Notes: generated from the letters alone by a model not told the origin. Positions 13,569 to 32,509 are shown, numbered from the stretch's first letter. The stretch: 32,509 nt of DNA from Candidatus Kapaibacterium sp. (GCA_028691175.1 JAQUZU010000005.1:1-32509), one strand, 5' to 3'. Numbers and translations are program-made.

Positions 13569-15551
13569 ATGCAAAAAAATTCCCGTATATATAATGTAGT
13601 GATTCTAGCATTGCTTGCCACATTCGGCATTCAATCGTGCAGCATGCCGGATTTAATCGTTCCGGAAAAAAACGCGCCAAAAGAATACCGTGCATACAAA
13701 GGCGACAGCGTCGAAATCCGCTGGAATTATCTGAATGCCGACCGCGTTTACATTGACGGATACGACGGAATGTATAACACGAGCGACTATATTCGCGTTT
13801 ATGCCGACAAATCCAAAGATATCGTCATCCGCGCATATCAGGGAAATGTCGATTCGTTAATCGAACGCAGAAGCATTATCGTCGGGCAAGAAACCGATGA
13901 AATTGCCGGCACAAACGACGCAACCGAAACTCCTGCAGAGGAACTGCAAAACGTTGCTCCGACTCCAAGCGTTACCGAACCGGAAAACATCTCTTCCCCG
14001 CAGCGCGGACCGCTCCGCGAGGAAGTTTTCTATGGCGAAGTCCGCACCGGACAAAGCGAATATTTCCGCGGCGTGAAGCGCGATGGCGGGTTTAATCCGA
14101 CTACTCTGCGCGTAACGCGAGTTACTCCCGAAGCCACCGTAAATGGCTATAAATTATATATGCGTGCATTATTGCTCGACGAGCACGGCAATTTTGTAGC
14201 TCGCGAACCGGACAACACGAACTATCATTTTAATCTTGATTACGGCTATAACGACAAAAAAGTCAGCCACGTTACGGACAAAGTTTACGAACTCGTCTCC
14301 GACGACGGTCGTGGCTGCGACTACACTTTTTTAGTCGATAATTCCCTTGCCGCCACCGAAAACGATAAAATCATGCAGGCAGTCCGCGAATTTGCGGGGC
14401 GATTGTCGCAGCAGGACAGAATGTCGCTCGCAGGATTTAACTCCGGCACGGAAAAAATGTTCGACATGATGTCGCCGGAATACGCTATTTCCGAACTGCG
14501 TTCGCTTTCGATGCCGAAGTCGCGCGGGCTGAATGCACTATATAAAGTTGCATATAAATCCGCAAAAGACGCAAAATCGACACACAACGAGCAAGCAATC
14601 GTAATAGTAACTCACTATAACGACAATGCATCCATTATATATTCAGCCAACGATTTGATAAAAATAGCCAATCAGAAACAAATTCCGGTCTATATTGTTG
14701 CGGTCGGCGATGCTCTGAAGACGTATTTTCTGAACTATATCTGCAATCGCACGGGCGGAAAATTCTATCATATTTTCAGTGATGAAACCGATAAAATCAA
14801 CGACATCTTGGCTGAAATTGCTTTTGGAATCAAGAACTATTACCTGATAGAATTCCCAAATATTACTGCACGCGAGTCCGTCGCAGATCAGCTTCGCGGC
14901 ACCCTTAAACTCAATGTTTCAAATACTCAGCTTGCCGACGCAGTAGACATATTTCCGCAGCCGATTGCCGAATATTTCCAGTATCAGGCACTTTCGCTGT
15001 TTGATTTCCGCTCGATCGAACTTTTGCCGGAATACCGTGCTTTGCTCGATTCGTTCGCAGTCGTTTTGCTGGATAATCCGCAATACAATGTTGCGTTGAT
15101 TGGTCATACTTCAGACGAAGGCAGCCCGGAATATATGTTCGCACTTTCGCTCGACCGTGCGAATGCGGTAAAAGACTATTTGATTGCCGCAGGCGTTCCG
15201 GCGAAACAAATCACGGTAAAATCTTTCGGCTATCGCAAACCGCTTTACTTCGGCATGATGATGGAACCATGGCAGGAGCGCATGAATCGCCGGGTAGAGG
15301 TTCGCTGGCTCGAGCCGGATCGTTTCCCGATGGAAATCGCTGTTGAAACAGCCGACACCGAAACCGAAGCAGGCAAACTCGAGCAGACATGGCAGAAACG
15401 CGGATACAAAGCATTCTATGAACGTATCATCGAAGCAGGCGAAGCAAAATATCAGATTAAACTCTGGGGATACCGCTCCCGCGAAGACGCCGAACGCGAT
15501 ATTCAGACAATTGAAGCAAAATACAAAGGCATTCATTGCGAAATTGAATAA
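13569..15551 (+). CDS. lipoprotein with vWA-like, OmpA-like and SPOR-like domains
   Basis: 660 aa. Signal plus Cys24 (LLATFGIQSC). vWA-like block aa ~250-420 (DYTFLVDNSLAATEND...VIVTHYNDN...VYIVAVGD). OmpA-like peptidoglycan-binding block aa ~475-582 (NVALIGHTSDEGSPEYMFALSLDRANAVKDYL...NRRVEVRW). SPOR-like tail aa ~585-660. Confidence 0.85.
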   Translation: MQKNSRIYNVVILALLATFGIQSCSMPDLIVPEKNAPKEYRAYKGDSVEIRWNYLNADRVYIDGYDGMYNTSDYIRVYADKSKDIVIRAYQGNVDSLIERRSIIVGQETDEIAGTNDATETPAEELQNVAPTPSVTEPENISSPQRGPLREEVFYGEVRTGQSEYFRGVKRDGGFNPTTLRVTRVTPEATVNGYKLYMRALLLDEHGNFVAREPDNTNYHFNLDYGYNDKKVSHVTDKVYELVSDDGRGCDYTFLVDNSLAATENDKIMQAVREFAGRLSQQDRMSLAGFNSGTEKMFDMMSPEYAISELRSLSMPKSRGLNALYKVAYKSAKDAKSTHNEQAIVIVTHYNDNASIIYSANDLIKIANQKQIPVYIVAVGDALKTYFLNYICNRTGGKFYHIFSDETDKINDILAEIAFGIKNYYLIEFPNITARESVADQLRGTLKLNVSNTQLADAVDIFPQPIAEYFQYQALSLFDFRSIELLPEYRALLDSFAVVLLDNPQYNVALIGHTSDEGSPEYMFALSLDRANAVKDYLIAAGVPAKQITVKSFGYRKPLYFGMMMEPWQERMNRRVEVRWLEPDRFPMEIAVETADTETEAGKLEQTWQKRGYKAFYERIIEAGEAKYQIKLWGYRSREDAERDIQTIEAKYKGIHCEIE

Positions 15552-15784: not shown

Positions 15785-16828
15785 ATGGAAAATTCTGAAA
15801 AAAAATATAAAATTCTAATAGCTGAAGATGAAATCACTAATTCATTACTACTAAAAAGATTACTTACAAAAGCGAACTATGACGTAACAGTTACAAATAA
15901 TGGTGCGGCAGCATTCGAAGCAATGCAAAACGAAACTTTTGACGCAGTTCTTACCGACTGGATGATGCCAAACATGGACGGCATCGAACTTATCCAAAAA
16001 ATGCGTAGCGAAATGAAAGAACTTCCGCTGATAGTAATGATTACGGCACTTGTAAGCGAAGGCTCGCGAAATATCGCGTTAGAAGCCGGTGCAGACGAAT
16101 TTATCGCAAAGCCGATCGACGTAGAAGATCTTTTAATACACGTGAAAGACGGATTATGCAAAAAGAATCAGTCGGCTATGCCGGCTACTTTTACTCCGAC
16201 AAGTAAAAATAACGGTTTCGTCGCTGCAAACGCAAATACCGAGAAGCCACCATTCGTCGGCGTAGGCGTCGCCACCTCTACAGGCGGGCCGAGCGTACTT
16301 ATCGACATGTTCAGAAATATTCCGGAAGACGTTCCGGCAGCATTTTATCTTATCCAGCACGGACCAATCTGGATGCTGGATTTATTCACCACCAAGTTGC
16401 AGTCTGCAACTGCTCTGAAAGTATATCTTGCGCAAGACGGGCAGAAATCCGAACGCGGACGCATATATGTCGCTCCTGCCGACAAACACTTGACCATCGA
16501 CAAAGCCACCATGAAAATCGTACTCGACGACAATCCGAAAATCAACTTTGTTCGCCCATCGGCAGACCCGCTATTTACGTCGCTTTCGTATGCTTTCGGC
16601 AAATACAGTATCGGCGTAATCCTTACCGGATTAGGTCGCGACGGCGTTCAGGGAGTTTCGAATATTGCCGAAATCGGCGGTAAAGTAATAGTTCAGGATC
16701 CGCTCAAAGCAGTGGCTCCGCTTATGCCGCAAGCCGTCATCGACAGCGGAATCAATCTGACAATCGCTCAGACAGAAGACCTCGCTTTCACAACGAGAAA
16801 TACGATTGACGAATTATACGCAAACTAA
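15785..16828 (+). CDS. cheB: CheB-like response regulator / protein-glutamate methylesterase
   Basis: 347 aa. REC domain (KILIAEDE...DAVLTDWMMPNMDG...AKP). C-terminal CheB methylesterase with the Ser/His/Asp contexts ATSTGGPSVL, IQHGP and LTGLGRDGVQG. Confidence 0.88.
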   Translation: MENSEKKYKILIAEDEITNSLLLKRLLTKANYDVTVTNNGAAAFEAMQNETFDAVLTDWMMPNMDGIELIQKMRSEMKELPLIVMITALVSEGSRNIALEAGADEFIAKPIDVEDLLIHVKDGLCKKNQSAMPATFTPTSKNNGFVAANANTEKPPFVGVGVATSTGGPSVLIDMFRNIPEDVPAAFYLIQHGPIWMLDLFTTKLQSATALKVYLAQDGQKSERGRIYVAPADKHLTIDKATMKIVLDDNPKINFVRPSADPLFTSLSYAFGKYSIGVILTGLGRDGVQGVSNIAEIGGKVIVQDPLKAVAPLMPQAVIDSGINLTIAQTEDLAFTTRNTIDELYAN

Positions 16829-17139: not shown

Positions 17140-18696
17140 ATGAGTACTAACAAAGAAAAAATCGACGAGCTTCGCGAGAAGAAAGCCAAAGCCCTTTTAG
17201 GCGGTGGCGAAAAACGCATCGAGAAGCAGCATCAGCAGGGCAAACTCTCTGCAAGAGAGCGTCTCGGATTACTGTTTGATAATGGATTCTATGATGAATT
17301 CTTTATTTTTGCAGAACCAAACAAACAACTTTGCGATCATCCAAACGCTAAAGAAATGCACGCAGACGGCGTTGCAACCGCTTTGGGCGCAGTAGATGGC
17401 AGATTAGCTTATGCCGCATCGCAGGACTTCACGGTTTCCGGCGGTTCAGTAGGCTATATGCACGCATGGAAAATTTGCGAAATGGGTCGCAAGGCTCTTC
17501 GCGACGGTGCACCATTTATTACAATCAACGATTCGGGTGGAGCACGTATTCAGGAAGGTATCAACGCATTGCGCGGATATGGTGAAATATTTTATCACAA
17601 CACATTGCTCTCCGGCGTAGTTCCGCAGATTGCAATCATCTCCGGCCCGTGTGCGGGCGGTGCTGCATATTCTCCGGCTTTGATGGATTTCATCATTATG
17701 GTCAAGAATACCGGCAAGTTGTTCATCACCGGTCCTAACGTAATCAAAGAAGTTACCGGCGAAGACATTTCCGCAGAAGAACTCGGCGGCGCAATGGCTC
17801 ACGCAGTTAACAGTGGTAACATTCACTTTGTAGCAGAAGACGACGAAGACGCAATTGCAATTACCAAGAAACTTCTTAGTTATTTGCCGAGCAACAATAC
17901 AGAAGAACCACCGTACACCGGTTCTTGCGAACTTGAAATTCCAAACGACGAATCACTCAACAGCATTTTGCCGGATGATCCGCGCGAAGCATACGACATG
18001 TTCGATGTATTGAACAAAGTATTCGATCCGGGTTCGATCTTCGAAATTCAGGCAGATTGGGCTAAATCAATCATTATCGCTTTCGCTCGCCTCAACGGCA
18101 GAGTAGTCGGCGTAGTTGCTAATCAACCGAACTATATGGGCGGTATCCTCGACATCAACTCGAGCGATAAAGGTGCTCGTTTCATCCGTTTCTGCAACGC
18201 ATTCAATATTCCTATATTGACATTAGTAGATGTACCGGGCTTTATGCCGGGTATCGAGCAGGAATTTGGCGGCATTATTCGCCACGGCGCTAAGATGCTC
18301 TTTGCTTATTCTTCGGCAACAGTTCCGAAACTGACTCTTATTCTCCGCAAGGCTTATGGTGGAGCATTCTTGGCAATGTGTGCTAAATCTCTCGGTGCAG
18401 ACCGCGTAGCTGCATGGCCAACTGCAGAAATCGCCGTTATGGGACCTGAAGGTGCAGTTGCAGTACTTAATAAAGATGAAATCAAAAACGCTGCAGATCC
18501 GAAGGCAAAACGCCAAGAACTCATTCAAGAGTACAAAGACAATTTGCTCAACCCATACGTTGCAGCATCTATCGGCATGATTGACTCCGTTATCGAACCA
18601 ATGCAGACTCGTCTTTACTTATCGATTGCTCTCGAAACATCTAAGAGCAAGAGAGAATTAAGACCACAGAAAAAACACGGCTTAATTCCAATGTAA
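17140..18696 (+). CDS. mmdA: methylmalonyl-CoA decarboxylase alpha subunit (carboxyltransferase; propionyl-CoA carboxylase beta-chain family)
   Basis: 518 aa. Typical carboxyl_trans family sequence (GKLSARERL, DFTVSGGSVG, SGGARIQEG, ISGPCAGGAAYSPAL, RKAYGGA). Operon context with OadG-like, biotin carrier and OadB-like genes. Confidence 0.92.
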   Translation: MSTNKEKIDELREKKAKALLGGGEKRIEKQHQQGKLSARERLGLLFDNGFYDEFFIFAEPNKQLCDHPNAKEMHADGVATALGAVDGRLAYAASQDFTVSGGSVGYMHAWKICEMGRKALRDGAPFITINDSGGARIQEGINALRGYGEIFYHNTLLSGVVPQIAIISGPCAGGAAYSPALMDFIIMVKNTGKLFITGPNVIKEVTGEDISAEELGGAMAHAVNSGNIHFVAEDDEDAIAITKKLLSYLPSNNTEEPPYTGSCELEIPNDESLNSILPDDPREAYDMFDVLNKVFDPGSIFEIQADWAKSIIIAFARLNGRVVGVVANQPNYMGGILDINSSDKGARFIRFCNAFNIPILTLVDVPGFMPGIEQEFGGIIRHGAKMLFAYSSATVPKLTLILRKAYGGAFLAMCAKSLGADRVAAWPTAEIAVMGPEGAVAVLNKDEIKNAADPKAKRQELIQEYKDNLLNPYVAASIGMIDSVIEPMQTRLYLSIALETSKSKRELRPQKKHGLIPM

Positions 18697-18723
18697 CAGT
18701 AACAATGAGAATATAAAAAAATA

Positions 18724-19086
18724 ATGAATGATAACGTTTTATTAGCCACACAAATGCTCGTAATTGGAGTGGGTGGCGTGTTTGTAGCATTGATATTTTT
18801 TGCAATTGTAATTGCAATAATTCGCGATGCTAAATCTTGGTTCGGGAAAAAACAACAACCGGCTGCTGCTGTTTCTGCAGAAAAATCAGTTGTCTCTGTT
18901 CCGAAGGAGGATCCACGCGATATCGTGGCAATAATTTCTGCTGCTGCCGAAGTCGCTTATGGCAAAAGAGTTAAAATTACGAAAATATCCTTCTTACAAA
19001 GTCATGCAGATTCCGGATGGACAGAGTATAGCAGGTTGGGCACAATGTCGAACCATAACATAATATTGAAGGGAACCATGAGATGA
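18724..19086 (+). CDS. mmdD: methylmalonyl-CoA decarboxylase delta subunit (OadG-family membrane anchor)
   Basis: 120 aa. A single N-terminal TM helix (LVIGVGGVFVALIFFAIVIAII) as in OadG/MmdD, plus operon position. Confidence 0.8.
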   Translation: MNDNVLLATQMLVIGVGGVFVALIFFAIVIAIIRDAKSWFGKKQQPAAAVSAEKSVVSVPKEDPRDIVAIISAAAEVAYGKRVKITKISFLQSHADSGWTEYSRLGTMSNHNIILKGTMR

Positions 19087-19268
19087 AAGATGAAAAAATA
19101 TCCGAAGAAATTCTCGCCTTAATTACTGCCGTTGCAGTCGCTGCAACAGGTAAAAAGGTTGAAGTAAAAAGAATCAGTTTCCTAAATCCGCAACAAGAAA
19201 ACCGTAGTTGGACTCTTGTCGGAAAAGTAAATACAATGTCGAATCATAATTATAATTTAAAAGGATAA
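19083..19268 (+). CDS. mmdE: methylmalonyl-CoA decarboxylase epsilon-like small subunit (paralog of the delta C-terminus)
   Basis: 61 aa. The start overlaps the mmdD stop (ATGA). The sequence ALITAVAVAATGKKVEVKRISFLNP..WTLVGKVNTMSNHNYNLKG aligns with mmdD residues AIISAAAEVAYGKRVKITKISFLQS..WTEYSRLGTMSNHNIILKG. Confidence 0.75.
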   Translation: MKDEKISEEILALITAVAVAATGKKVEVKRISFLNPQQENRSWTLVGKVNTMSNHNYNLKG

Positions 19269-19274
19269 ATATAA

Positions 19275-19688
19275 ATGAAAAAATTGAGAATTGCCGTTGA
19301 TGGCAAACAATACGATGTGGAAGTCGAAATCTTGGAAGATGACGAAAATAACGTTCTTCCATCTTATTACAACCAAACTGCTCCGGTTAATGTAGCACCA
19401 CGTGCTGCTGCTCCGGCTGCTGCTGCCGCAGCTGCCGCTCCGCGTGCAAAGAAGACTCCGACTAAAGCTGCAGGCGAGAACGAATTAACTTCACCTATCA
19501 ACGGTGTAGTTCTCGAAATCCCGACCAAAGCTGGTCAGACAGTTGCTGAAGGCGAAGTTGTAATCGTACTTGAAGCTATGAAAATGAAAACTAATATTTC
19601 TTCTCCAAAAGCAGGCGAAATTGCATCTATAAATGTAAGCCTCGGTGACCGCGTAGAAGCAGGTCAGAGCCTCGTTACATTTAAATAA
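19275..19688 (+). CDS. mmdC: methylmalonyl-CoA decarboxylase gamma subunit (biotin carboxyl carrier protein)
   Basis: 137 aa. Ala/Pro-rich linker (APRAAAPAAAAAAAAPRAKK) and the biotinyl-lysine motif LEAMKMKT. Confidence 0.92.
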   Translation: MKKLRIAVDGKQYDVEVEILEDDENNVLPSYYNQTAPVNVAPRAAAPAAAAAAAAPRAKKTPTKAAGENELTSPINGVVLEIPTKAGQTVAEGEVVIVLEAMKMKTNISSPKAGEIASINVSLGDRVEAGQSLVTFK

Positions 19689-19699
19689 GGATACATAAA

Positions 19700-20830
19700 A
19701 TGTTAGAAGCTTTTGAACGATTTGTCGGCAGTATGGGCTTCCAAGCCCTCACTGCCGGTAACGTGCTAATGATGTTAATCGCCGGAGTATTGATCTGGTT
19801 GGCAATTAAAAAAGGTTTTGAACCACTGCTGCTTTTGCCGATTGGCTTAGGCGCTTTGCTGACAAATATTCCGCTTAACGGACTGCTTAACGAGCCGACT
19901 GCCGAAGCAATAGGCGGCTTATACTATTACATTTCGCAGGGTATTCATCTCGAAATCTTTCCGCCTTTGATCTTTTTGGGCATTGGCGCGATGACGGATT
20001 TCGGTCCGCTGCTGGCTAATCCGAAAACCTTCTTATTAGGTGCCGGTGCGCAATTCGGTGTATTCTCGGCTCTTTTTCTTGCGATTATGCTGGGTTTCTC
20101 TCCGCGAGAAGCCGCTTCCATCGGTATTATCGGTGGTGCTGACGGCCCGACTGCGATATTCCTGACTTTGAAACTTGCTCCGCATTTACTTGGTCCAATC
20201 GCTGTGGCTGCATATTCATATATGGCATTGATTCCTATGATTCAGCCGCCGATTATGAAATTGATGACCACAAAGAAAGAACGCGAAGTAGTGATGACTA
20301 CTTCTAAACCTGTTAGCAAGAATGTCCGCATAATCTTCCCGATTATCGTTATGGTGTTCTCGCTATTGGTAGTACCTGCTTCTGCAGCCTTAATCGGTAT
20401 GCTTATGGCCGGTAACTTACTTAAAGAATCGGGCGTTGTGGAGAGACTTTCAAACATGGCTCAAAACGAATTGATGAATATCGTTACTTTCTTCTTGGGT
20501 ACAAGCGTTGGTATGACAATGAGCGCCGACTCTTTCCTTTCGATTGCTACATTGAAGATTATCGTGCTTGGCGTACTTGCTTTCGGATTTTCAACTTTCG
20601 GTGGTCTGGTACTTGGTAAAATTCTTTATAAAGTAACCGGCGGAAAAGTTAATCCGCTTATCGGTGCGGCAGGTGTATCTGCAGTTCCGATGGCAGCTCG
20701 CGTGGCTCATAACGAAGGACAGAAATACAATCATAATAATTACTTGCTTATGCACGCAATGGGCCCGAACGTCGCAGGCGTAATCGGCTCGGCTGTTGCT
20801 GCAGGTATTCTGCTATCGTTCTTCCAATAA
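19700..20830 (+). CDS. mmdB: Na+-translocating decarboxylase beta subunit (OadB/GcdB/MmdB family)
   Basis: 376 aa polytopic membrane protein. FEPLLLLPIGLGALLTNIP, GIGAMTDFGPLLANP and GGADGPTAIF blocks are typical of the family. Confidence 0.93.
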   Translation: MLEAFERFVGSMGFQALTAGNVLMMLIAGVLIWLAIKKGFEPLLLLPIGLGALLTNIPLNGLLNEPTAEAIGGLYYYISQGIHLEIFPPLIFLGIGAMTDFGPLLANPKTFLLGAGAQFGVFSALFLAIMLGFSPREAASIGIIGGADGPTAIFLTLKLAPHLLGPIAVAAYSYMALIPMIQPPIMKLMTTKKEREVVMTTSKPVSKNVRIIFPIIVMVFSLLVVPASAALIGMLMAGNLLKESGVVERLSNMAQNELMNIVTFFLGTSVGMTMSADSFLSIATLKIIVLGVLAFGFSTFGGLVLGKILYKVTGGKVNPLIGAAGVSAVPMAARVAHNEGQKYNHNNYLLMHAMGPNVAGVIGSAVAAGILLSFFQ

Positions 20831-21193: not shown

Positions 21194-22147
21194 ATGAAAA
21201 ATTTCAATATGATTTTTAGTTCCATAGTGTTTTTATCTATATCTTCTATGGTATGTTTTGCAAAAGCAGAAACAAAGACAATTAATACTGAGTTGGGGGA
21301 ATGTACCCATAAGATGGAGTTAATCGACGGCGACGGCGACGGCAAGTATGATTTAATAAAAAATTATTTCATTGGTGGCGACGGTGTGTGTTATAAACAT
21401 ACAGAAGGCCCAATAAAAAAACCGGAAACAAAGACAATTAATACTAAGTTGGGGGAATATACCCATAAGATGGAGCTAATCGACCGCGACGGCGACGGCA
21501 AATATGATTTAATAAAAAATTATTTCATTGGTGGCGACGGTGTGTGTTATAAACATACAGAAGGCCCAATAAAAGAAATAGCTGTACCTAAAAATCCTTC
21601 GTTTGAACATAACGCACAAAGATTCTGTAGCGATATTGAAAATATGGTTTTCTATGCTAAAGATTATACTCACTTAGATCTGCAGGATACAGCAAGCCAT
21701 ATTTCTCCAAATATGGAAGTAGTATTATATACTAATCCGGAATGCGACGGTACATGGTTTGCAACAATCACATCCAATGCTCTCGGAGAGTATAAGATCG
21801 AAAAATATGCCGTTTTTGAGATGACCGACACACAATTCTTACAATTATTCTTAACTCCATACGGCATTTCTGCCGAGGGACATACTCCGGAAGATTTTAT
21901 AATTACTTGTCCCGATATTATTACCGGCGAAACAATTGATTTGACGCTCGGAACTCTCGCTGCTCAGATATACAATAAATTTGAATTATTCAATTCAGAG
22001 GGTTTGCTTATTTCAACAATAATTAATGATTCAAAACTTAAATTTTTATCATTCTCCACATCCGGTCTGCCGAACGGAACATATATTATCCGTAATACCT
22101 CTACTCTGAACGAAACTGATACAAAGACTATTCTCCTAAATAAATAG
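21194..22147 (+). CDS. secreted T9SS-sorted protein with duplicated DGDGDG-containing module
   Basis: 317 aa. Strong SD (AAGGAGAG). Signal peptide MKNFNMIFSSIVFLSISSMVCFA. Two 52-aa tandem repeats. The C-terminus ELFNSEGLLISTI...LPNGTYIIRN...KTILLNK resembles a T9SS type-A sorting domain. Confidence 0.8.
   Translation: MKNFNMIFSSIVFLSISSMVCFAKAETKTINTELGECTHKMELIDGDGDGKYDLIKNYFIGGDGVCYKHTEGPIKKPETKTINTKLGEYTHKMELIDRDGDGKYDLIKNYFIGGDGVCYKHTEGPIKEIAVPKNPSFEHNAQRFCSDIENMVFYAKDYTHLDLQDTASHISPNMEVVLYTNPECDGTWFATITSNALGEYKIEKYAVFEMTDTQFLQLFLTPYGISAEGHTPEDFIITCPDIITGETIDLTLGTLAAQIYNKFELFNSEGLLISTIINDSKLKFLSFSTSGLPNGTYIIRNTSTLNETDTKTILLNK
21269..21580 (+). repeat. in-frame 156-bp tandem duplication (2 copies; 5 substitutions over ~150 aligned nt)
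   Basis: Copy 1 is 21269-21424, copy 2 is 21425-21580. Hand alignment shows g>a, g>a, t>c, g>c and g>a differences, then divergence in the last ~6 nt. Confidence 0.95.
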
Positions 22148-23317: not shown

Positions 23318-24523
23318 ATGGATATCGAACACCTTGGTCAAGTATTTACCCCGGCGGAAATCGTCGGGCAAATGCTTGCTCTGCGACGAAACTTCGGACG
23401 CGTGCTTGAACCTTCGTGTGGTGCCGGAGCATTTTATAAAGTTATTTGGGACTGCGTTGCAATCGAACTTGACCCGCTTGTTTGCCCGCCGGGAGCAAAT
23501 TGTACAGACTTTTTCGATTATCCGACAGAAGAGAAATTCGACACAATTATCGGCAATCCGCCATACGTTCGATATCAAGACATTGCACCGGCGACAAAAA
23601 AAATAATCGAAAGCAAGAGTGCAAATTTCAACGTTTCCGCGGTGGACTTCGACCGGCGCTCGAATCTGTATCTCTTCTTCATCGCAAAATGTATCGAACA
23701 CCTTACGCCGCACGGCGAACTGATTTTCATTACGCCACGCGAATTTCTGAAAGCAACCTCAGCCCGCAAGTTAAACGAATTTATCTATGATAGCGGAACA
23801 ATTACCGACTTAATCGACCTCGCTGACCAACGTGTTTTCGACGGTGCCACGCCGGACTGCATTATATTTCGCTTTGAAAAGGGAAATTTCACGCGAAAAA
23901 CGGCTGTCGCAACCGGTACGCTTCGGCAGGCTGACCGCCGGCTAAATGAACTTCGCATCGGAAAATTTTCTACTAAATTTTTTTCGATTTCGAACGGACA
24001 ATTACTTTTTACGTCGGACGAATATCAGGCTAAATTCTCTGATTTGTTTTATGTAAAAGTCGGCGGAGTAAGCGGAATGGACAGTGTATTTGCCTCAGAC
24101 GAATTCGGCACGCACGATTTTGTCTGCTCTGAAACTCGGCAAACCGGCGCAACCCGGCGTATGATTTACAACTCAAAATGCAACTATCTCGAGCAACACA
24201 AATCGGAACTTCTCGCTCGGCGGATCCGGCACTTTGACGAAAGCAATTGGTGGATGTGGGGACGCAACTGCTATGTTTCGTCTGCCCCGCGCATCTACGT
24301 CAATATGAAAACTCGCGTAGAAAATCCGTTTTTTCTGCATTCCTGCAACTATTTCGACGGCTCTATTCTTGGGATTTTTCCGCACGACATAAGTGCAGAC
24401 CTTAATAAACTGTGCGAAAAGCTAAATTCAATCGACTGGGCGGAACTCGGTTTCCGTGCCGGCGGCAGGTTCCTTTTCAGCCAAAGAGCGCTTGAAAATA
24501 CCAAAATAATGATTATCGATTAA
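23318..24523 (+). CDS. solitary N6-adenine DNA methyltransferase, gamma class (M.TaqI/Eco57I-like)
   Basis: 401 aa. Motif X QVFTPAEIV, motif I VLEPSCGAGAF, motif IV IIGNPPYVRY in that order, followed by a ~300-aa C-terminal region (presumed target-recognition domain). Confidence 0.88.
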   Translation: MDIEHLGQVFTPAEIVGQMLALRRNFGRVLEPSCGAGAFYKVIWDCVAIELDPLVCPPGANCTDFFDYPTEEKFDTIIGNPPYVRYQDIAPATKKIIESKSANFNVSAVDFDRRSNLYLFFIAKCIEHLTPHGELIFITPREFLKATSARKLNEFIYDSGTITDLIDLADQRVFDGATPDCIIFRFEKGNFTRKTAVATGTLRQADRRLNELRIGKFSTKFFSISNGQLLFTSDEYQAKFSDLFYVKVGGVSGMDSVFASDEFGTHDFVCSETRQTGATRRMIYNSKCNYLEQHKSELLARRIRHFDESNWWMWGRNCYVSSAPRIYVNMKTRVENPFFLHSCNYFDGSILGIFPHDISADLNKLCEKLNSIDWAELGFRAGGRFLFSQRALENTKIMIID

Positions 24524-24567: not shown

Positions 24568-24606
24568 TAAAAAAACCGTGAGCCTCTTGCGAGGCCCACG
24601 GATTTT
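24568..24606. terminator. bidirectional intrinsic terminator between the convergent MTase and giant-protein genes
   Basis: CCGTGAGCCTC (24576-24586) pairs with GAGGCCCACGG (24591-24601) with one mismatch. A8 upstream gives the U-tract for the minus strand; ATTTT follows on the plus strand. Confidence 0.8.
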
Positions 24607-24627: not shown

Positions 24628-27600
24628 TTATTTAACTTTTACGATTTCCTTAGTTATAGATGAGTTACCAGCCATAATGTTCAGGTAGTAAGTACCGGAC
24701 GGTAAATCGTTGCCGTTAAGTTCTACAACATGAGAACCTGCAGCGAAGAATTGACCTGTGGTAAGAGTGCGAACAACTTCGCCTACTGCGTTGTACATTA
24801 CGATAGTTACGTCCATTCCTTCAGGTAATGTAAAGCTGACATTTGCATTTGCATAGAACGGGTTCGGAGTAGCAGAGAAGTTAGCAAGAGCGTCGTTATC
24901 TTCTACACTTACAGTACCGTTGATTTCAAATGTTTCAGTTCTGTCGTATTCGAGACCTTCTTGGCCGTCATAGATTGCTCTGATGACTGCTTCTTTAGTA
25001 TTTACGTTTGGCACGTTCCAAGAATAAGTCTTGTACATTGCTGCTACGCCTACTGCGAATGTTGACCAAGTCGAACCGTTATCGGCAGAGAATTGTAAGT
25101 CAAATTTATTTACATTATCGTAAGTCCATTTAACGTTTTCTTTCGAATTTGCAGCGACGCTTGATTTAGCAGTCGGAGTAGTTAATGTAACAACGCCTGC
25201 CAATACTTTGAATGCAGATGAAGTAACAACAACTTCGTCAGTCTGAACATCGATCATGCGAACGTAAGCGGATTTAGTATTTACAACCGGAAGAGTCCAG
25301 TCTGCTTTACCATCGCTTGCATTTACAACGCCTGTAACTGTAGTCCAGTCATAACCGTTTGCTGTGAATTCGAATCTTACGTTACCAGTGTAATCGTAGT
25401 TCCATTTAATTACGTCTGCTTTACCGCCTACATATACAGGATCAGTAGAGCAAGGACGAGTAATTTCTGCAGTTGCAGTGCTGAGAGCGAATGTAGCGTC
25501 TGAACGATCTACTTCTACGCCTGATTCAGCATTTACTATTCTAACGAATGCTTCTGTAGATTTTACTCTCGGAGTTACCCAGTTGTAGCTTAAGTCAGAG
25601 CTCATAACCGGAGTAGTTGTAATTCTGTTCCAAGTGTGTGCATTGTCTGTAGAGTAATCCAAGTGGAAGTATGCTTTCTGGCTTGGAGCAGACCAAGTGA
25701 TTGTATAGAGCGAACCTGCTTCGAGTTCTTCGCCGCCATTCGGATAAGTTACAGTAGCAACTTTATCGAGAACAACTGCCGGAATCGGCTCGAAAGTACC
25801 TTGAGCTGTTACATTTTGACCATTTGTAGTATATACTACAGTGATCGGGTGCCAGTTAAGGAAGATGCCTTCGTTCATATTTATAACTTTGAATCTTAAA
25901 GTACCCATGTAAGTAGCGCTATTAGGAACGTTTGCACCCGGTTTGCGTACTTGATCATAGATGTTATAATCGATATCGATTGTTCTTAGGTCTGTAATCG
26001 GGTCTTTAGCGTTTGCATATGGAGCCGAGAACGTTTCGAGATAACCGAGATCTTCTCTTTGATCAAAGATCACGTCTGCTTCTTTGCTCATTTCAACGAA
26101 TTGCAATTGAGCATTATCATATTGAATACCGAAAGTAGAGTTACCAAGAGCGAATTCGCCACCCAAGTTAGTAATGTACATAGGAACATTCAAATATTCT
26201 CCGTCGAGTTCAGGATTAGCATTTACTCTATAGTTCAAGCCTGCTTGAAGAGTTGCTTCTTTAGCTTCAGTTGTAGTAAAGTCTTCATTATTGATTACTT
26301 TTTGCTCGAGTTCGATATTGCGTTTGTAGAGTTCCGGAGCAAGAACCATAAGTTCGCTGTTATATTCCGGAGCAACTTTTCCGCTAACAGACGGAGTAGC
26401 AGTCAATGAAGAGATTTTACCTGAGTTACGATAAACGATTTGTCTATCAGATGCGTTTGTCAAACCGTCGCCGGTAACATCTGTATTAACGCTTGTACCA
26501 CCGTCATTTAAGATAACGAGAGTTCTATCTGCAGCATTGATTTGACCATCTTTTACTACATCACCACCAACCATTGCTGCAATTGAAGTAGCACCAGTAG
26601 TGCCTACTAAACCGTTGTTATAAACAAGTCCTGTAGCGGCATAATCAGTTAAGTTAGGATTAGTTTCAGAATAACCGTATGCAGAGTATTTGTCTGCGAT
26701 CGACGGCGGAACAGCCGCAGCGTCAGTTTCACTCATGTTATTATTTGCAGTACCATTCCAGTTTTGGAAATCCCAACCTGATTCAACTGCCCAAGTTTGT
26801 GCATCATCGCCATCATAAGCGAATGGAGCAGCAAATGCGGACATAATCGGCAAGTGGTTAATGTTATCAACTTTTACGAAATATCTACCGTCTGCGAGGT
26901 CTGTGAATACGAACGGAACGTTTGCGTATCTTGAACCATCAGTTCCACGAGTTATCGGATCGAGTGTAGTAGCATGTGCCAAATAGTTAAATTCTGATTC
27001 AGCAGAGTCAACTCTTACGCCCGGGAGGCCTGCATTATTGCGGAAGAGAGTAATCTTCAAGCCGCCTTCTGCATAAGAAGCACCGATGTCGTTTTTAATA
27101 GCCTGATCTTCGTGATGACCTTCGAGAAGTACTCTTACAGTGAAGTTACTTGGAGGAGTAATGTTGAAGTATTCAGTCATTGATTGCAATGAAGGCATAA
27201 GACCGTCTGCACTGTTATCATATTCAAGAGTAGTACCGTTGATAGTCGAGCGAGCATTCATTAACAATCTACCGTTAGTTTTAGCGGCTGCGATTGGAGC
27301 TTGATCGCTATAAGTGAAGTCATCATTTTCGTCAGGATCAGCCAAGGATACATCCAATTGTGCAGCGAATTGAGATTTGCTGTTTGCACCAAGGAATTCG
27401 AATCCGTTGTTAGAAGCCGGCAAAGTCATTGCGTTAGTATAAGCTGCAGACCAAGTCTGAGATGCTACATATTGCCAATCTTGGATAGTTGTACCACCGC
27501 CACCTTTTACAGAGAACTGCATGTCTGCATGGTTAGTTGCATCGCTACCATTATAGAATGTTTCAGTAGCGTCATTTCTGTTATAATCGAAACCTGTCCA

Positions 27601-30600
27601 GCGAACTTTAAGGTTAGTCATTGTATTAGGAACTCTTTGTTCGAGTACCGGTTCAACGAGTTTAATAGTCGGGCGAGTTGCTTCATAAGCATAACCATCG
27701 CCGCTCATATGTACTAAGAATTCAGTTGAAGTCGGATAACCCAATGCAGTACCAACATAACCTGTAGGAACGAAGTTACCACCGTTAAAGCTGAATGCAG
27801 CCAATAAGTTTGCAGCATAGTTTGTACCACCATAACTTACTAATTCGTTTGCACGGATTGTAGCTGCACCTTGAACAAATTTAGTCAAAGCAGAAGGTTC
27901 AACGCCTGACGGAGCCTGATTACCAGGATTTCCACCCCAGAATCTTACTTCTTTCATTTCACCAACGAAATGAACGCCTTCGCCTGCTACTGAACTTGGT
28001 TCGTAACCGAAGAATACCGGATAAGTATTATAAGGATCTACAGTAACGTTTGCGCCTAATTGAGTAGTAATTGTATCTACATATTGCGGAGTACCGTCGA
28101 TATAGAATCTTACAACCGAATTTTCGCCACCGTTTGCCAAATTAACATAAGCTGCTACATGATACCATGCAGAGTCAGATACTTGCAGTGTCGGAGGAAC
28201 CAATACCGGATGTGCTGCACTTGTTGCAGTGCGGATTGCGTCGCCGGTAGTTGATGCAACTGCTAATTGCAATTGACCTGTAGGTAATAAGCGGAGAGAA
28301 TAATGCATATTTTCGCTACCATCATCCATTTTCTTGGTAATGATCGGGAAATAACCTTCTTCTTCAGTCGGGAATCTGTACGGACGAACCCATGCTTCGA
28401 TCATACCGATACCGCCATTGAAGTTTAAGTCTGAAGTATTTTCTTTTACTGCTAATTTAGCATTACCGTCATTTTTGATTGAGAAGTAAGGAGCAACTGT
28501 GAAATCGCCGGATTCATCAAAGATATCGTATTGATTTCTTGCTTCTGTACCGCTGATTCTCAGACGAACTGTCTTCGAATAGTTGTCTGCGAGCGGAAGA
28601 ATACCCTGTAAATCGTCATCTTGACCGGATACAGTAGTATTGTTATAAGGAGCCCACTCTGCTTCATAGCTTTCTACATCTACGTAGTCAAGCATCTGAG
28701 CCGGAGATTGATTGTCGATTGCGTCGAACCAAGATTCGCCACCGTCGCGGCTAGCCATAATTTGAATGTCTGAAGAATTCGGTTCAGTCGAACCCAAGCC
28801 AAAAGATACCCAACGTACTTTAAATACTTCGTCTTTCAAGTTAGAGATACCTTCGCCGCCGACAGGTGCAGTCAATTTGATGTGCGAGCGGTCCGGGCGA
28901 TAATTAACGAGACTGTTATCGAGAGTACCGCAATTGTACCAGTTCAGCGGGTTAGCGCTCTTTTGGTAGTAATATTCATCAGCGATATCAAGGCGTCCAC
29001 CCTGTAACGGATAATAAAGTTCAAGAGTAGTTCTTTCATCAACTGTGGTAGGAGAAGAACCAAGAGCAGTAATGTCGCCATTTGCGTCATATACGCCGGC
29101 AATATTTTTTCTCAAAACGTCTTGGTCAAGAGCAGTTCTCCAAACCTTTACTTCTTTGATACCTGCATTGAGGTAATCACCTTCGTTTAAGCCACCATTA
29201 GGATTTACACCAATCCAGATCGGATGAGTAGTAGCCCATAATCTCGGACTTACAAGGTCGCTGTTAGTATATCTGTCTACGATTTCGCCATTTACATAAA
29301 GTGTAACAACGTTATCTTTTACAGATGCTGCGATATGATTCCAGTTATTGCCGTGTGCGTTTGAAATCGGAGTAGTAGCGGCAACTGCTGTTAATGCTGT
29401 CGGAGAGACAACATTTGCAAGTAAGTTTGCGCCGTTGTTTGTGTTTTCGCGGCAACGGAATGCCGGGTAAATACCGTCTTTCAAATAAAGCATCCAAGCA
29501 CCTTCGGAGCCGGAAAGAGTACCATCTGCGGAAACTACGATACCGGTTTCTGCGCCGGCAGTTTCAGTTAAACCGTTCAGGTTAATCCATGCTTCTACAG
29601 TCAATTGGCTAGGAGTAGAGAAGTTGTTTTGTGTTTTAAGATAAGAGCAAGTACCATCGAGTTGAACAAAGAATAGTCTGCCCAATACGAATGTAGCATT
29701 GCTTTCGTCTTTTCTGCCTGCTTCGTTTGTGTATTTGCTTCTTGTGCTAACGTTATTTGCCACGCCAACTGTATCGATTTGTACAATGCGGAGTTTGCCT
29801 TCTTCTGAACGTGCAAAGAAGTTTTCGTTACCCTTCCAGATAATTCTCATAACGCCGGAATTAGCACCTAATTTTGTAGTGCCGTCGCCTTCAGTAATGA
29901 AATATCTGTTAGCTGAGTTAAGACTGTCGATTTCGCCACTGCGATATTTATCTACCTCTGTGCCGAGTTCGGTCGAGTTTTTATCAGTTTCAGCTACACG
30001 GCCTGCTTCAGTCCAAGTAGAACCGTTATTCAAAGAATATTCAAGTGCATAACCAACTTTATTGGTTACATAATCTGCCGTTCCTATTAAACCACTACGC
30101 TCGAAATATACCGGATAACCGTTATTCGGAGAGAGGGAAGCAAGAGCGGGACTAGGATTTCTGTTTACTGCATTGCTGCCGCCATTCGGAGCAAGAATTG
30201 TAATGCCGCGAACCGTGAAATCGCCTTGATTTACAAAATTAACGTCTGCGGTAATGTCATTGCCGTCAGCGTCGTCAATTACGATTGTACCAATGCTGGC
30301 GTTTGTATTGAATTCAATACCGGTAAGCATTGCGTCAGTCAAAGTGCTGTAATTTTTAATGTCAAATTTTAACATACCGACGAATGAGCCGCGACCTACG
30401 TTTGAAGGTTTGTAGCCTACGCCATCGACTGTTTTATTTACATCGAGTACATAATAATATGTTGTTCCGTCATTTGCCGGAGCAGCCGAAAGAGCCAAAT
30501 AGCCATTGGCGTTTACGTTATGGAATGGGGATGCGATAGTAACATACGGTTGTGCAACGTCCATATCGTAGCCGATAGAATCAGTTGTGCCATACGCTGT

Positions 30601-30870
30601 TGTCCCCGACGGGGTCAAGAAATCCGTATTGTATTTCACTGCGAAAGTAGCGTTGCCCAGTTTCGGAGCGGTGCCGTCTGCAGTTACATCTTTTGCCCAT
30701 ATTTCTACGCCGATCTTATTGCCGATACGACGCTGGTTCATAGTTACTTCGTAACTCTGCGAGAAAGCGTCATCAGTCACGAGCATTAACCCCATAACGA
30801 ACCAGAAAATATTCAACCAAGATAGCCGGAAGGGCTTTGCTTGTCTATTTAGATAAGTTCTCATTATCAT
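24628..30870 (-). CDS. giant T9SS-sorted surface protein with cohesin-like, dockerin-like and LamG-like modules
   Basis: 2080 aa. Signal peptide (..LMLVTDDAFSQ) and internal modules (see findings). C-terminal NPFYANANVSFTLPEG..VTIVMYNAVGEVV..LPSGTYYLNIMAGNSSITKEIVKVK is a T9SS type-A sorting domain. SD spacing favours the second ATG (30864). Confidence 0.92.
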   Translation of the reverse strand: MIMRTYLNRQAKPFRLSWLNIFWFVMGLMLVTDDAFSQSYEVTMNQRRIGNKIGVEIWAKDVTADGTAPKLGNATFAVKYNTDFLTPSGTTAYGTTDSIGYDMDVAQPYVTIASPFHNVNANGYLALSAAPANDGTTYYYVLDVNKTVDGVGYKPSNVGRGSFVGMLKFDIKNYSTLTDAMLTGIEFNTNASIGTIVIDDADGNDITADVNFVNQGDFTVRGITILAPNGGSNAVNRNPSPALASLSPNNGYPVYFERSGLIGTADYVTNKVGYALEYSLNNGSTWTEAGRVAETDKNSTELGTEVDKYRSGEIDSLNSANRYFITEGDGTTKLGANSGVMRIIWKGNENFFARSEEGKLRIVQIDTVGVANNVSTRSKYTNEAGRKDESNATFVLGRLFFVQLDGTCSYLKTQNNFSTPSQLTVEAWINLNGLTETAGAETGIVVSADGTLSGSEGAWMLYLKDGIYPAFRCRENTNNGANLLANVVSPTALTAVAATTPISNAHGNNWNHIAASVKDNVVTLYVNGEIVDRYTNSDLVSPRLWATTHPIWIGVNPNGGLNEGDYLNAGIKEVKVWRTALDQDVLRKNIAGVYDANGDITALGSSPTTVDERTTLELYYPLQGGRLDIADEYYYQKSANPLNWYNCGTLDNSLVNYRPDRSHIKLTAPVGGEGISNLKDEVFKVRWVSFGLGSTEPNSSDIQIMASRDGGESWFDAIDNQSPAQMLDYVDVESYEAEWAPYNNTTVSGQDDDLQGILPLADNYSKTVRLRISGTEARNQYDIFDESGDFTVAPYFSIKNDGNAKLAVKENTSDLNFNGGIGMIEAWVRPYRFPTEEEGYFPIITKKMDDGSENMHYSLRLLPTGQLQLAVASTTGDAIRTATSAAHPVLVPPTLQVSDSAWYHVAAYVNLANGGENSVVRFYIDGTPQYVDTITTQLGANVTVDPYNTYPVFFGYEPSSVAGEGVHFVGEMKEVRFWGGNPGNQAPSGVEPSALTKFVQGAATIRANELVSYGGTNYAANLLAAFSFNGGNFVPTGYVGTALGYPTSTEFLVHMSGDGYAYEATRPTIKLVEPVLEQRVPNTMTNLKVRWTGFDYNRNDATETFYNGSDATNHADMQFSVKGGGGTTIQDWQYVASQTWSAAYTNAMTLPASNNGFEFLGANSKSQFAAQLDVSLADPDENDDFTYSDQAPIAAAKTNGRLLMNARSTINGTTLEYDNSADGLMPSLQSMTEYFNITPPSNFTVRVLLEGHHEDQAIKNDIGASYAEGGLKITLFRNNAGLPGVRVDSAESEFNYLAHATTLDPITRGTDGSRYANVPFVFTDLADGRYFVKVDNINHLPIMSAFAAPFAYDGDDAQTWAVESGWDFQNWNGTANNNMSETDAAAVPPSIADKYSAYGYSETNPNLTDYAATGLVYNNGLVGTTGATSIAAMVGGDVVKDGQINAADRTLVILNDGGTSVNTDVTGDGLTNASDRQIVYRNSGKISSLTATPSVSGKVAPEYNSELMVLAPELYKRNIELEQKVINNEDFTTTEAKEATLQAGLNYRVNANPELDGEYLNVPMYITNLGGEFALGNSTFGIQYDNAQLQFVEMSKEADVIFDQREDLGYLETFSAPYANAKDPITDLRTIDIDYNIYDQVRKPGANVPNSATYMGTLRFKVINMNEGIFLNWHPITVVYTTNGQNVTAQGTFEPIPAVVLDKVATVTYPNGGEELEAGSLYTITWSAPSQKAYFHLDYSTDNAHTWNRITTTPVMSSDLSYNWVTPRVKSTEAFVRIVNAESGVEVDRSDATFALSTATAEITRPCSTDPVYVGGKADVIKWNYDYTGNVRFEFTANGYDWTTVTGVVNASDGKADWTLPVVNTKSAYVRMIDVQTDEVVVTSSAFKVLAGVVTLTTPTAKSSVAANSKENVKWTYDNVNKFDLQFSADNGSTWSTFAVGVAAMYKTYSWNVPNVNTKEAVIRAIYDGQEGLEYDRTETFEINGTVSVEDNDALANFSATPNPFYANANVSFTLPEGMDVTIVMYNAVGEVVRTLTTGQFFAAGSHVVELNGNDLPSGTYYLNIMAGNSSITKEIVKVK

Positions 30871-31011: not shown

Positions 31012-32509
31012 TTATGGAGTTACGCTAAATATTTCACTTGATTTAGTTCCTACCTTCAGAGTATAAGGCTCTGCAGATGAACTGCCGTCCGATGAGTAAA
31101 TTTTGAGTGTATAGGTACCGGCAGCGAGCCCATTAATTACCGGACCTTCACTACCTTGTCCTAAGCGGATACCGCGACGGATTCTCTTGCCTTCGGTATT
31201 GTAGATTTCTACATTGTAGCCGGCCGGTAAGTTGCTAAGTTGAGCACGAACATTCGGGTTTGCACTGCTTACGGAGAAGTTGAACCAATCTTCGTCTGTT
31301 GCATCTTTGATTGTACCTTTTACCGGTGTGTTAGTACCGATTGTACGGGAAGTCTCGCGAGTATTGTTTTCGCCAAACGCTACATCATCATCGTTGCTGC
31401 CACTGGTAGTAAATGCTTGTGGGTTTCCGCTTGCTGCAGAAAGTTTGTAGCTTTCTGTGCCGTTTGAACCTGCGAAAGCAAATGCATAAGCATAGTATGT
31501 CGTATTTGGAGACAAACTGCGAACTGTAGCAGCAGCAGTAGCACCTTTTGCAACAACAACGGCGTCGCCGATTTGCGAACCTGCGCCATAAAGTGCATCA
31601 GCTGTATATGTAGTACCATTTACCGGATATTCGGCTTTTGTCAATGGTTCGCCTGCTTTAAGGACGATAAGAGCAGTAGCTGCACTTGTTGTCCAAGCAA
31701 TATCGGCAGTTGTGTTTGCCGGAGTAATAGTAACAATTGTTGCCTGAGTAGCCGGAGCATCAGCAACCACGTTAAATGCTTTGCTTACTGTCGGTGTATA
31801 AACGTTAGCAGCGTCGTCATCAGCCTGAAGTTGGATATTTGCACCTGCTGCTGTACTTGCAGTAGCCGTAAGAGTAGTAAATGAACTTCCTGCAGTAATT
31901 ACGCCTTTAACAGGCTCATCAGTAATAGTGGTAGTAGCACCAAGTTTTTTAGTAAGTTCTACATTTACCGGAGTTTCAGTAGTAATCGGCTGACCAAATT
32001 GATCCTGCAATTGAACAGTTACCGTGAAAGGTCTGTTAAGCTGAACCGGATTCGGAGAAATGTTTGTAATTACTACGTTCTTTGCAGCGGTAGAAATTGC
32101 AGCATCGACTGCTGTATTAGCTGCGTCAGTATTATCATACTCTTGACTAATACTAAATACAGCCCAATCGCCTGCGAGAGCAGTAGAATTTGCTATTGAG
32201 TAATCATTAATAATCGCATCATTAGCACCGGATTTGCCATTTCTGTAATCTTTCCACGCATCGTTTTCCCATTTTGCTGCTATATTTCTTTTTGCAGTAC
32301 CTGTTGTGCCTACAGCAGTACCTGTTGCGAAAGTAGCATTCAAAGCGTCGTTCGGGTCGGTGCCGACAGGTTTAATCGTATAAACCAAATCGAGTGCATT
32401 TTCCGGATTGCCGGCTCTGCCTACTGTCGGCTCTGTTGCTTTTGCAGAAACTATTACTTCCTGAGTTGTGCCAGGAGTTTGGAAATTCAAAGTTACCGGA
32501 TTATAATCG
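31012..32509 (-). CDS. surface/secreted protein with Ig-like, FN3-like and PPC (pre-peptidase C-terminal) domains; partial, N-terminus beyond the right edge
   Basis: The frame stays open upstream of the track's TTG at 32490 (..DYNPVTLNFQ..), so the gene continues off-window. Ig-like block VVITNISPNPVQLNRPFTVTVQLQDQFGQPI. FN3-like block IVTITPANTTADIAWTT...NTTYYAYAFAF. PPC-like block DWFNFSVSS...YNVEIYNTEGK...GTYTLKIYSSDG..EPYTLKV. Confidence 0.85.
   Translation of the reverse strand, partial: DYNPVTLNFQTPGTTQEVIVSAKATEPTVGRAGNPENALDLVYTIKPVGTDPNDALNATFATGTAVGTTGTAKRNIAAKWENDAWKDYRNGKSGANDAIINDYSIANSTALAGDWAVFSISQEYDNTDAANTAVDAAISTAAKNVVITNISPNPVQLNRPFTVTVQLQDQFGQPITTETPVNVELTKKLGATTTITDEPVKGVITAGSSFTTLTATASTAAGANIQLQADDDAANVYTPTVSKAFNVVADAPATQATIVTITPANTTADIAWTTSAATALIVLKAGEPLTKAEYPVNGTTYTADALYGAGSQIGDAVVVAKGATAAATVRSLSPNTTYYAYAFAFAGSNGTESYKLSAASGNPQAFTTSGSNDDDVAFGENNTRETSRTIGTNTPVKGTIKDATDEDWFNFSVSSANPNVRAQLSNLPAGYNVEIYNTEGKRIRRGIRLGQGSEGPVINGLAAGTYTLKIYSSDGSSSAEPYTLKVGTKSSEIFSVTP

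Follow-up and report, generated by a model that had tools for sequence, protein, structure and literature searches.

A stretch of 32,509 nucleotides from Candidatus Kapaibacterium sp. (GCA_028691175.1, JAQUZU010000005.1:1-32509, an entire GenBank contig; hereafter the window) encodes on its minus strand a giant protein, here called B, in which two cohesin-fold modules, a dockerin and two LamG modules are combined with a secretion signature of the T9SS (type IX secretion system). Its gene is one half of a conserved gene pair, the other half encoding a second giant, A. We put at about even the chance that B, from a Kapabacteria bacterium, serves without catalysis in assembly or adhesion at the cell surface and works together with A. 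The domain identities, the secretion signature, the conservation and the gene pairing are observations, and a surface scaffold or adhesin role appears to be the most reasonable reading of the protein. The best-known role of cohesin-dockerin pairs is to hold Gram-positive cellulosomes together. The individual parts of B are of known kinds, while the novelty lies in their combination, an architecture fixed across the class, a cassette exclusive to the family, the structure of its paralogs and the pairing with A.

A fixed architecture across Kapabacteria

Gene B is an uninterrupted open reading frame (ORF) of 2,080 codons running from 30870 to 24628, the single giant minus-strand frame that a sequence-only reading of the window had described; the nucleotide coordinates which that reading gave for the modules are all consistent with their residue numbers (Table 1). 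The protein is deposited in GenBank under a generic name (MDD3124370.1) with a start at M3 and 2,078 residues, and M3 is invariant across the family alignment. An annotation artefact or a pseudogene was ruled out, the frame being intact and conserved over its full length at 37-99% identity.

A search of 5.8 billion proteins with B returned 179 matches. Among the 120 matches listed, query coverage was 95-100%, identity 37-99% and length 1,994-2,202 residues, with one fragment and eight entries of a variant of ~2,260-2,320 residues as exceptions; where names were given among these, they were Kapabacteria, Kapaibacterium, Ignavibacteria, or generic LamG or T9SS designations. Scanning of GTDB species representatives yielded at least 144 relatives, and all 76 loci which we kept come from metagenome-assembled genomes (MAGs). 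Many of the MAG records holding a B gene are titled 'uncultured Hyphomicrobiales bacterium', and others Desulfobulbaceae, Chloroflexota or Chitinophagaceae; these titles are probably placeholders, wrong labels or the result of mis-binned contigs.

Per-module hidden Markov models (HMMs) found an identical module order in more than 70 complete relatives: N1-R1-LamG1-L3-R2-LamG2-L4-R3-S5-dockerin-(L7)-C2-R4-R5-R6-CTD, where N1 and C2 are the cohesin-fold modules and CTD the C-terminal domain. Rare variants carry one extra LamG or R2, and exactly two cohesins stand at fixed positions in every relative scanned (>70). The modules share 39-54% pairwise identity and have near-fixed lengths; only the signal peptide and the L7 linker (16% pairwise identity, 41-72 residues) vary freely, and the dockerin, at 54%, is among the two most conserved modules. 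Scaffoldins and adhesins built of repeats, by contrast, lose and acquire repeat units; the rigidity seen here argues that every module of B has a defined place in a structure. As judged from these alignments, B is not a free-standing, repeat-variable scaffoldin but a member of a fixed 16-module family.

Export signals, LamG modules and repeats

The putative signal peptide, read by eye, comprises a basic n-region and the hydrophobic LSWLNIFWFVMGLMLV, followed by AFS|QS. It is variable within the family (24% pairwise identity), and a conserved AQxYE motif directly follows it. At the other end of the chain, the type-A CTD that had been proposed was recovered by both curated profiles above their cut-offs at residues 2001-2078, namely PF18962 (Por_Secre_tail; 31.6 bits, cut-off 27) and TIGR04183 (34.5 bits, cut-off 23). 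A further 28 ORFs at orthologous loci match the CTD profile of the family. Both LamG modules are likewise confirmed, Laminin_G_3 (PF13385) matching B in two stretches well above its cut-off (E=6e-28, 98.2 bits, cut-off 27.6), and the two align with one another at 97.3% in hhalign.

The remaining repeats required some revision. Six copies of a ~90-residue module had been counted from the sequence; three tandem copies (residues 1703-1990, >99%) and one larger copy (residues 663-797, 97.5%) stand, whereas for residues 222-398 and 1067-1238 the relationship is no more than marginal (75-88%). Weak matches of R4-R6 were to Reelin_subrepeat-B, Kre9_KNH and CHB_HEX_C. The R modules carry Asp-box-like SxDxGxTW motifs, which is why weak matches to Reelin_subrepeat-B, BNR and CHB_HEX_C arise. 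Isolated N1, R1, L3+R2, L4+R3 and S5 segments gave nothing in Pfam except one non-significant Reelin_subrepeat-B match (E=0.14).

These less familiar segments are where an enzyme could hide. Under such an explanation R1, S5, R3 or the LamG jelly-roll would hold the catalytic site of a glycoside hydrolase or lyase, with the rest of B as accessory modules. The short motifs with the highest conservation in B do fall within R1 and S5, the most conserved stretch of the whole family being GYPVYFERSGL in R1 (residues 251-261). Among their residues are invariant charged ones (E257, R258, E294, R342, R354, D1367), and the concanavalin-like fold also houses glucanases according to the Pfam description of PF13385. 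Nevertheless, no catalytic family was found for B or four of its orthologs in Pfam, NCBIfam or PDB profile searches, which agrees with the absence of any recognisable catalytic motif noted from the sequence. The models of R1 and S5, each of ~180 residues, are mainly beta strands, and no enzyme catalytic domain appeared at a TM-score >0.2 among the top 50 PDB fold matches of the models covering residues 39-399 and 1239-1702. We thus regard a hidden enzyme as very improbable.

Cohesin-fold modules

N1 and C2 are homologous to one another (hhalign 97.5%, E=6e-12). N1 had no Pfam match, and C2 scored 15.4 bits against Pfam Cohesin (PF00963; cut-off 24.1), a threshold which the same position passes in orthologs P0012 (26.6 bits) and P0068 (32.8 bits). 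We built AlphaFold2 (AF2) models from an input alignment of 37 rows of family sequences. The model of residues 39-399 (N1 and R1) had a predicted local distance difference test score (pLDDT) of 92.6 and a predicted template modelling score (pTM) of 0.91; that of residues 1239-1702 (S5, dockerin, L7 and C2) had a pLDDT of 85.2 and a pTM of 0.88. PDB fold matches of the first were mainly cohesins (E 2e-6 to 1e-4, best target-normalised TM-score 0.71), and the top 27 matches of the second were all cohesins (target-normalised TM-score 0.55-0.68), with type II cohesins in the lead and 3fnk_B the best (E=1.9e-7), scores which refer to each multi-domain model as a whole and come with no report of the aligned query residues. 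The two cohesin-like modules first suggested by eye are thus borne out, N1 by its homology to C2 and by fold matches, and C2 by fold matches and by its orthologs.

The dockerin and its cassette

With Pfam Dockerin (PF00404; cut-off 22.9), full-length B gave 15.8 bits and its isolated dockerin segment 22.8 bits; orthologs P0107 (27.3 bits) and P0084 (26.9 bits) exceed the cut-off. A profile of 56 family members matched PDB dockerins, the best being the X-module-dockerin chain 2b59_B (E=1e-3); all told, its matches among PDB sequences were to dockerins, LamG and CTDs, with no enzyme. The two F-hand repeats are 27 residues apart and conserve calcium-ligand positions 1, 5, 9 and 12 in 47-56 of the 56 sequences, while position 3 of the first F-hand holds a non-ligand residue type. 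Helices were predicted by AF2 at residues 1446-1454 and 1473-1481, and D1437, D1448, D1475 and R1476 are invariant. The orthologs, the PDB matches and the conserved F-hand ligands together support the dockerin-like module that had been placed at residues 1435-1484.

S5 directly precedes the dockerin, in a position like that of an X-module. A beta-sandwich-looking segment had been noted at residues ~1243-1345; in the AF2 model it is made mainly of beta strands and extends over residues 1239-1425. S5, dockerin and C2 are predicted to form one compact unit (pTM 0.88), which would suit a lock that is internal or confined to the family no less well than the recruitment of an outside partner. Searching 1.84 billion representative proteins with this cassette gave 74 matches, which, generic dockerins aside, were family members or fragments, and among these representatives the cassette is, by such searches, exclusive to the B family. 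A single-sequence phmmer search with the dockerin cassette of B also matched poly-dockerin proteins (P0176, five stretches, E=1.6e-10). P0176 (453 residues) and P0184 (371 residues) are small, membrane-anchored-looking proteins with 4-5 tandem dockerins, encoded on short metagenomic contigs.

Partners for these modules were sought around the gene. HMMs of the family's N1, C2 and dockerin found no match outside the family among all ORFs of 80 loci and the giant A, and no enzyme-borne dockerin was found either in the window or in ~1.6 Mb of sequence surrounding the orthologs. A generic F-hand regular expression, run on the same ORFs, returned only the B family, single isolated loops in some A proteins, and one 482-residue protein. 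The latter, non-enzymatic and of 481-482 residues at its two loci, comprises a signal peptide and an unassigned N-terminal domain; it also has a dockerin, which scores 33 bits with Dockerin_1 at locus L029, and weakly matches the T9SS CTD. The window does not encode this protein, whose N-terminal domain had no detectable relation to N1 or C2 (hhalign <1%).

This evidence bears on the possibility that B is a cellulosome-like scaffoldin, whose cohesins recruit dockerin-bearing enzymes or other cargo, whose own dockerin plugs into an anchor, and whose LamG modules target polysaccharide. Several features invite such an explanation. Cohesins, an X-module-like domain and a dockerin in one chain make up the layout of an adaptor scaffoldin; the best fold matches are the type II cohesins of ScaA and SdbA, alongside the profile match to 2b59_B; a dockerin protein with a weak CTD match is encoded 2.5-6 kb from B in two genomes; and a scaffoldin anchored through the T9SS has been put forward in Cloacimonadota (PMC8542988). 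Other features speak against it. Real scaffoldins vary in cohesin number, while the two cohesins of B are fixed and never multiplied in more than 70 relatives. Besides the lack of enzyme-borne dockerins noted above, no B-type dockerin occurs outside the family, either in those ~1.6 Mb neighbourhoods or in the 1.84 billion representatives. No carbohydrate-binding module (CBM) family was matched (Pfam and NCBIfam on B; Pfam on its segments and orthologs), and no genes for carbohydrate-active enzymes flank the locus in the annotated window and orthologous neighbourhoods. The dockerin cassette is, moreover, predicted to be compact with C2. On balance we consider an enzyme-recruiting scaffoldin unlikely.

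At the other extreme, the cohesin and dockerin modules may be mere spacers without binding, leaving B a plain giant adhesin that attaches through LamG and Asp-box modules to prey, host or substrate, for example the sheaths of phototrophs. Giant T9SS adhesins are common. The modules of B share only 9-17% identity with true cohesins at TM-scores of 0.53-0.71, the cohesin and dockerin scores of this protein fall under their cut-offs, and the first F-hand lacks a ligand residue at position 3. Going by titles in the literature, Kapabacteria MAGs often derive from algal or cyanobacterial cultures. Yet a dockerin with 54% identity and invariant D1437, D1448, D1475 and R1476 suggests that a binding or calcium function has been maintained, and both cohesins are retained in every member of the family. 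We consider a plain giant adhesin with such inert spacers unlikely.

The partner giant A

Upstream of B, the window contains the end of A, without a stop codon before the contig end in the frame read towards its N-terminus; the fragment shares 51% and 46% identity with the C-terminal ends of two giants, of 2,585 and >4,000 residues, which lie directly upstream of B orthologs. In the near-identical syntenic strain L081, A is complete, has 1,494 residues and ends 147 nt before B, while 141 nt separate the A stop from the B start in the window. Sequence reaches far enough upstream to judge at 63 loci, and at 42 of these an A homolog lies next to B, upstream and on the same strand. Four loci (L020, L025, L030 and L033) show the order B-paralog, A, B; in at least one of them, L030, the upstream B-family gene encodes one LamG module more, as does the ~2,310-residue variant (P0119, L004).

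A consists of a signal peptide and a conserved GNWSxxxTWxGGxxPxxxDDVxI motif, then T/A/G/N-rich, beta-helix-like repeats, and a conserved C-terminal portion of ~500 residues with a weak fn3-like match and a CTD; total length ranges from 1,470 to over 3,300 residues. In two orthologs the CTD exceeds the TIGR04183 cut-off of 23 (27.9 and 25.6 bits), and A is a predicted T9SS cargo. Behind this divergent CTD, orthologs of A share a conserved ending, ...EIFSVTP.

In a neighbour-joining tree, the 74 full-length B proteins included fall into two clades. The clade of the window protein is A-linked in every assessable member but one and holds all the A-linked loci, while B proteins of the second clade stand alone, with no A. 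At least five MAGs hold one B copy from each clade.

How B may work

Characterised T9SS cargo loses its type-A CTD on export, the protein being left on or attached to the outer-membrane surface. By analogy, a Sec signal peptide would bring B to the periplasm and the CTD would pass it to the T9SS; with the CTD removed by that system, B would be displayed on, or attached to, the surface of the outer membrane. Once mature, B would be a chain of 15 modules, rigid for the most part and made predominantly of beta strands. Its two LamG modules are likely ligand-binding, probably glycan-binding, sites, and the two cohesins and the dockerin with its preceding beta-sandwich would serve as protein-protein connectors. 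Surface attachment, binding partners and ligand binding are in this sense what we infer from the sequence and its relatives. The connectors would most likely be used within the system and not as a cellulosome-like rack for enzymes; the high pTM of the three-domain cassette supports this, as does the long, unconstrained linker that separates dockerin and C2. The dockerin might fold back and lock onto C2 within its own chain, or it might swap to a cohesin in an adjacent B or in a paralog, and so build or stiffen a surface array. In the A-linked clade, B would work with A, a beta-helix-like fibre of variable length, both presumably being brought to the outer surface by the T9SS.

The idea that B is a self-assembling or partner-recruiting T9SS surface scaffold or adhesin had been put forward in the sequence-only reading. 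It stands insofar as B is enzyme-free, T9SS-sorted and equipped with lectin-like, cohesin and dockerin modules; the recruiting part is less well placed, given the fixed architecture, a lock that fits the data as well, and ~1.6 Mb without enzyme-borne dockerins.

Several observations weigh against an assembly role shared with A. Firstly, B's own cohesin and dockerin scores are under the Pfam cut-offs, and the profile of 56 members matched no cohesin among PDB sequences. Secondly, two cohesins face one dockerin, so that at least one cohesin is left without an identified partner, and the predicted contact between dockerin and C2 is read solely from the high pTM. Thirdly, the 481-482-residue dockerin protein is a possible cohesin partner, which makes outside recruitment possible. 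Finally, no cohesin or dockerin was detected in A by family HMMs or profile scans, which leaves the physical link between A and B unexplained.

A bolder form of the proposal is that A and B constitute an unrecognised T9SS surface apparatus found across Kapabacteria, in which A supplies a fibre and B a fixed 16-module protein that attaches through LamG to a partner or substrate and carries an X-module-dockerin/cohesin lock for assembly, not for enzyme recruitment. The lock may act within one chain, or head-to-tail between copies or paralogs. We offer this form as a doubtful one. If true, it would provide the first cohesin-dockerin architectural element of a Gram-negative outer surface.

Relation to known systems

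Close counterparts are the scaffoldins that serve as adaptors and anchors in the cellulosomes of Firmicutes (ScaA of Acetivibrio cellulolyticus, and the X-module-dockerin of CipA and type II cohesin of SdbA from Clostridium thermocellum; PDB 3fnk, 2b59, 2bm3), which, like B, are non-catalytic and place cohesins and a beta-sandwich-dockerin in one chain. Unlike these, B is a predicted T9SS cargo of a Gram-negative cell and is not anchored by SLH domains or sortase; it has two fixed cohesins, two LamG modules and six Asp-box-type modules, lacks CBM3, and its identity to them is 9-17%. The Clostridium perfringens cohesins of GH84C and GH33 (PDB 2w1n, 2vo8, 2jh2) are non-cellulosomal, as those of B would be, and are among its fold matches, but they are appended to enzymes or toxins, whereas B has no enzyme and carries cohesins and dockerin in the same chain.

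Very large non-catalytic T9SS surface cargo is also known from Flavobacterium johnsoniae, in which SprB and RemA, the latter with a lectin module, serve gliding motility; SprB uses a type-B CTD. Neither has a sequence relationship to B, and both lack cohesin and dockerin. An SprB-like gliding adhesin was ruled out for B on the grounds of the missing homology, its type-A CTD, the chemotaxis genes of the organism and a flagellar gene in a relative.

Cohesin and dockerin proteins outside cellulosomes were documented by the survey of Peer et al. (2009), as far as it is cited in PMC8542988. The same article describes, from MAGs of 'Ca. Stygibacter' (Cloacimonadota), a predicted T9SS-anchored scaffoldin of 3,755 residues. 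As in B, this protein is non-catalytic, has cohesins and a T9SS CTD, and comes from a member of the FCB (Fibrobacteres-Chlorobi-Bacteroidetes) group represented by MAGs only (PMC8542988). Compared by description, it differs in its tandem cohesins, CBM2/CBM3 and the dockerin-bearing enzymes of its genome (PMC8542988), as against the two separated cohesins, own dockerin, LamG modules and fixed architecture of B. Our searches of the literature, which covered Kapabacteria in general and with T9SS, cohesins and dockerins with T9SS, and noncellulosomal cohesins and dockerins, yielded no paper on the B family. The suggestion that no T9SS cargo of this architecture has been characterised holds, within these searches, as regards experimental description, with the reservation that B was already in GenBank under a generic name and that a T9SS-anchored scaffoldin had been predicted (PMC8542988).

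Few conserved features of this uncultured bacteroidotal class, which is frequent in algal, cyanobacterial and wastewater consortia, are as distinctive as B. Should its modules bind each other, cohesin-dockerin function would be extended to the surface architecture of diderm bacteria, protein engineers would gain a new and probably orthogonal cohesin-dockerin pair, and the way in which Kapabacteria contact their surroundings would become accessible to study. Should they not, B would be one more large hypothetical adhesin.

Features and neighbouring genes

Table 1. Coordinates of B, its modules and associated features, in nucleotides of the window unless a locus is named; module boundaries in residues (aa) of B.
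Feature	Position	Strand	Remarks
Gene B	24628..30870	-	2,080 aa including two residues before the GenBank start M3; stop codon 24628-24630
Signal peptide, aa 1-38	30757..30870	-	read from the sequence
Cohesin-fold module 1 (N1), aa 39-222	30205..30756	-	homology to C2; AF2 model; cohesin PDB fold matches
R1, aa 223-398	29677..30204	-	beta-sandwich with Asp-box-like motif; GYPVYFERSGL at aa 251-261
LamG module 1, aa 399-590	29101..29676	-	Laminin_G_3 at aa 406-584; PDB 4qvs match
L3 connector, 72 aa, aa 591-662	28885..29100	-	conserved; no family match
R2, aa 663-797	28480..28884	-	enlarged copy of the Asp-box Ig-like repeat; hhalign with R4 97.5%
LamG module 2, aa 798-985	27916..28479	-	second Laminin_G_3 stretch and weak Laminin_G_2
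L4 connector, 81 aa, aa 986-1066	27673..27915	-	conserved in the family
R3, aa 1067-1238	27157..27672	-	marginally related to R repeats (hhalign 75-88%); no family match
S5, aa 1239-1425	26596..27156	-	mainly beta strands in AF2; motifs FTVRVLLEGHH, NHLPIMS, ESGWDFQNW; no Pfam match
Dockerin, aa 1426-1490	26401..26595	-	two F-hand repeats, from D1437 and from D1464
L7 linker, aa 1491-1540	26251..26400	-	variable; helix predicted in AF2 model
Cohesin-fold module 2 (C2), aa 1541-1702	25765..26250	-	weak Pfam Cohesin here, above cut-off in orthologs; fold matches
R4-R6, aa 1703-1990	24901..25764	-	three tandem ~95-aa Asp-box Ig-like repeats; hhalign >99% pairwise
T9SS type-A C-terminal sorting domain, aa 1991-2080	24631..24900	-	PF18962 and TIGR04183 above cut-off
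Terminator-like hairpin	24576..24601	-	11-bp stem and T-run, 27 nt past the B stop; consensus scan only
C-terminal 498 codons of giant A	31012..32509	-	open to contig end; weak fn3-like and divergent CTD-like match; ends ...KSSEIFSVTP
481-482-aa dockerin protein, locus L001	L001:22028-23476	-	2.5-6 kb downstream of B
481-482-aa dockerin protein, locus L029	L029:18984-20426	+	2.5-6 kb downstream of B

The hairpin behind B, found by consensus scan only, may mark the end of a transcription unit. A scan for sigma-70 promoters did no better than on shuffled sequences (16 found against 14.9 expected).

The neighbours of B in the window are ordinary chromosomal genes, encoding GlnRS, TyrRS, MurC, ribosomal protein S1, the CheB methylesterase, a Na+-pumping decarboxylase operon, an epimerase and an Eco57I-type methylase. 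CheB, a response regulator joined to a methylesterase, lies at 15785-16828 (+), and FlaG is encoded in a relative (L001, 26121-26384); these bacteroidotal Kapabacteria appear, from their gene content, to be chemotactic and flagellated. At 21194-22147 (+), a 317-residue ORF without a Pfam family reaches a sub-threshold 16.4 bits with TIGR04183 and E=0.0017 with the CTD HMM of the B family, and may be another, small T9SS cargo.

The methyltransferase, a 401-residue Eco57I/N6_Mtase-type protein at 23318-24523 (+), is convergent with B; it matches the Eco57I profile only in the C-terminal part of that profile, positions 64-171, and no restriction domain was detected in the protein. In L001 a different methylase, of the Dam type, is found downstream of the B ortholog. 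A 660-residue protein with von Willebrand factor A and OmpA-type peptidoglycan-binding domains is encoded at 13569-15551 (+). The Na+-translocating decarboxylase operon at 17140-20830 (+) comprises carboxyltransferase, OAD gamma, biotin carrier and OAD beta genes, and strains L081 and L082, which are near-identical, have it in synteny.

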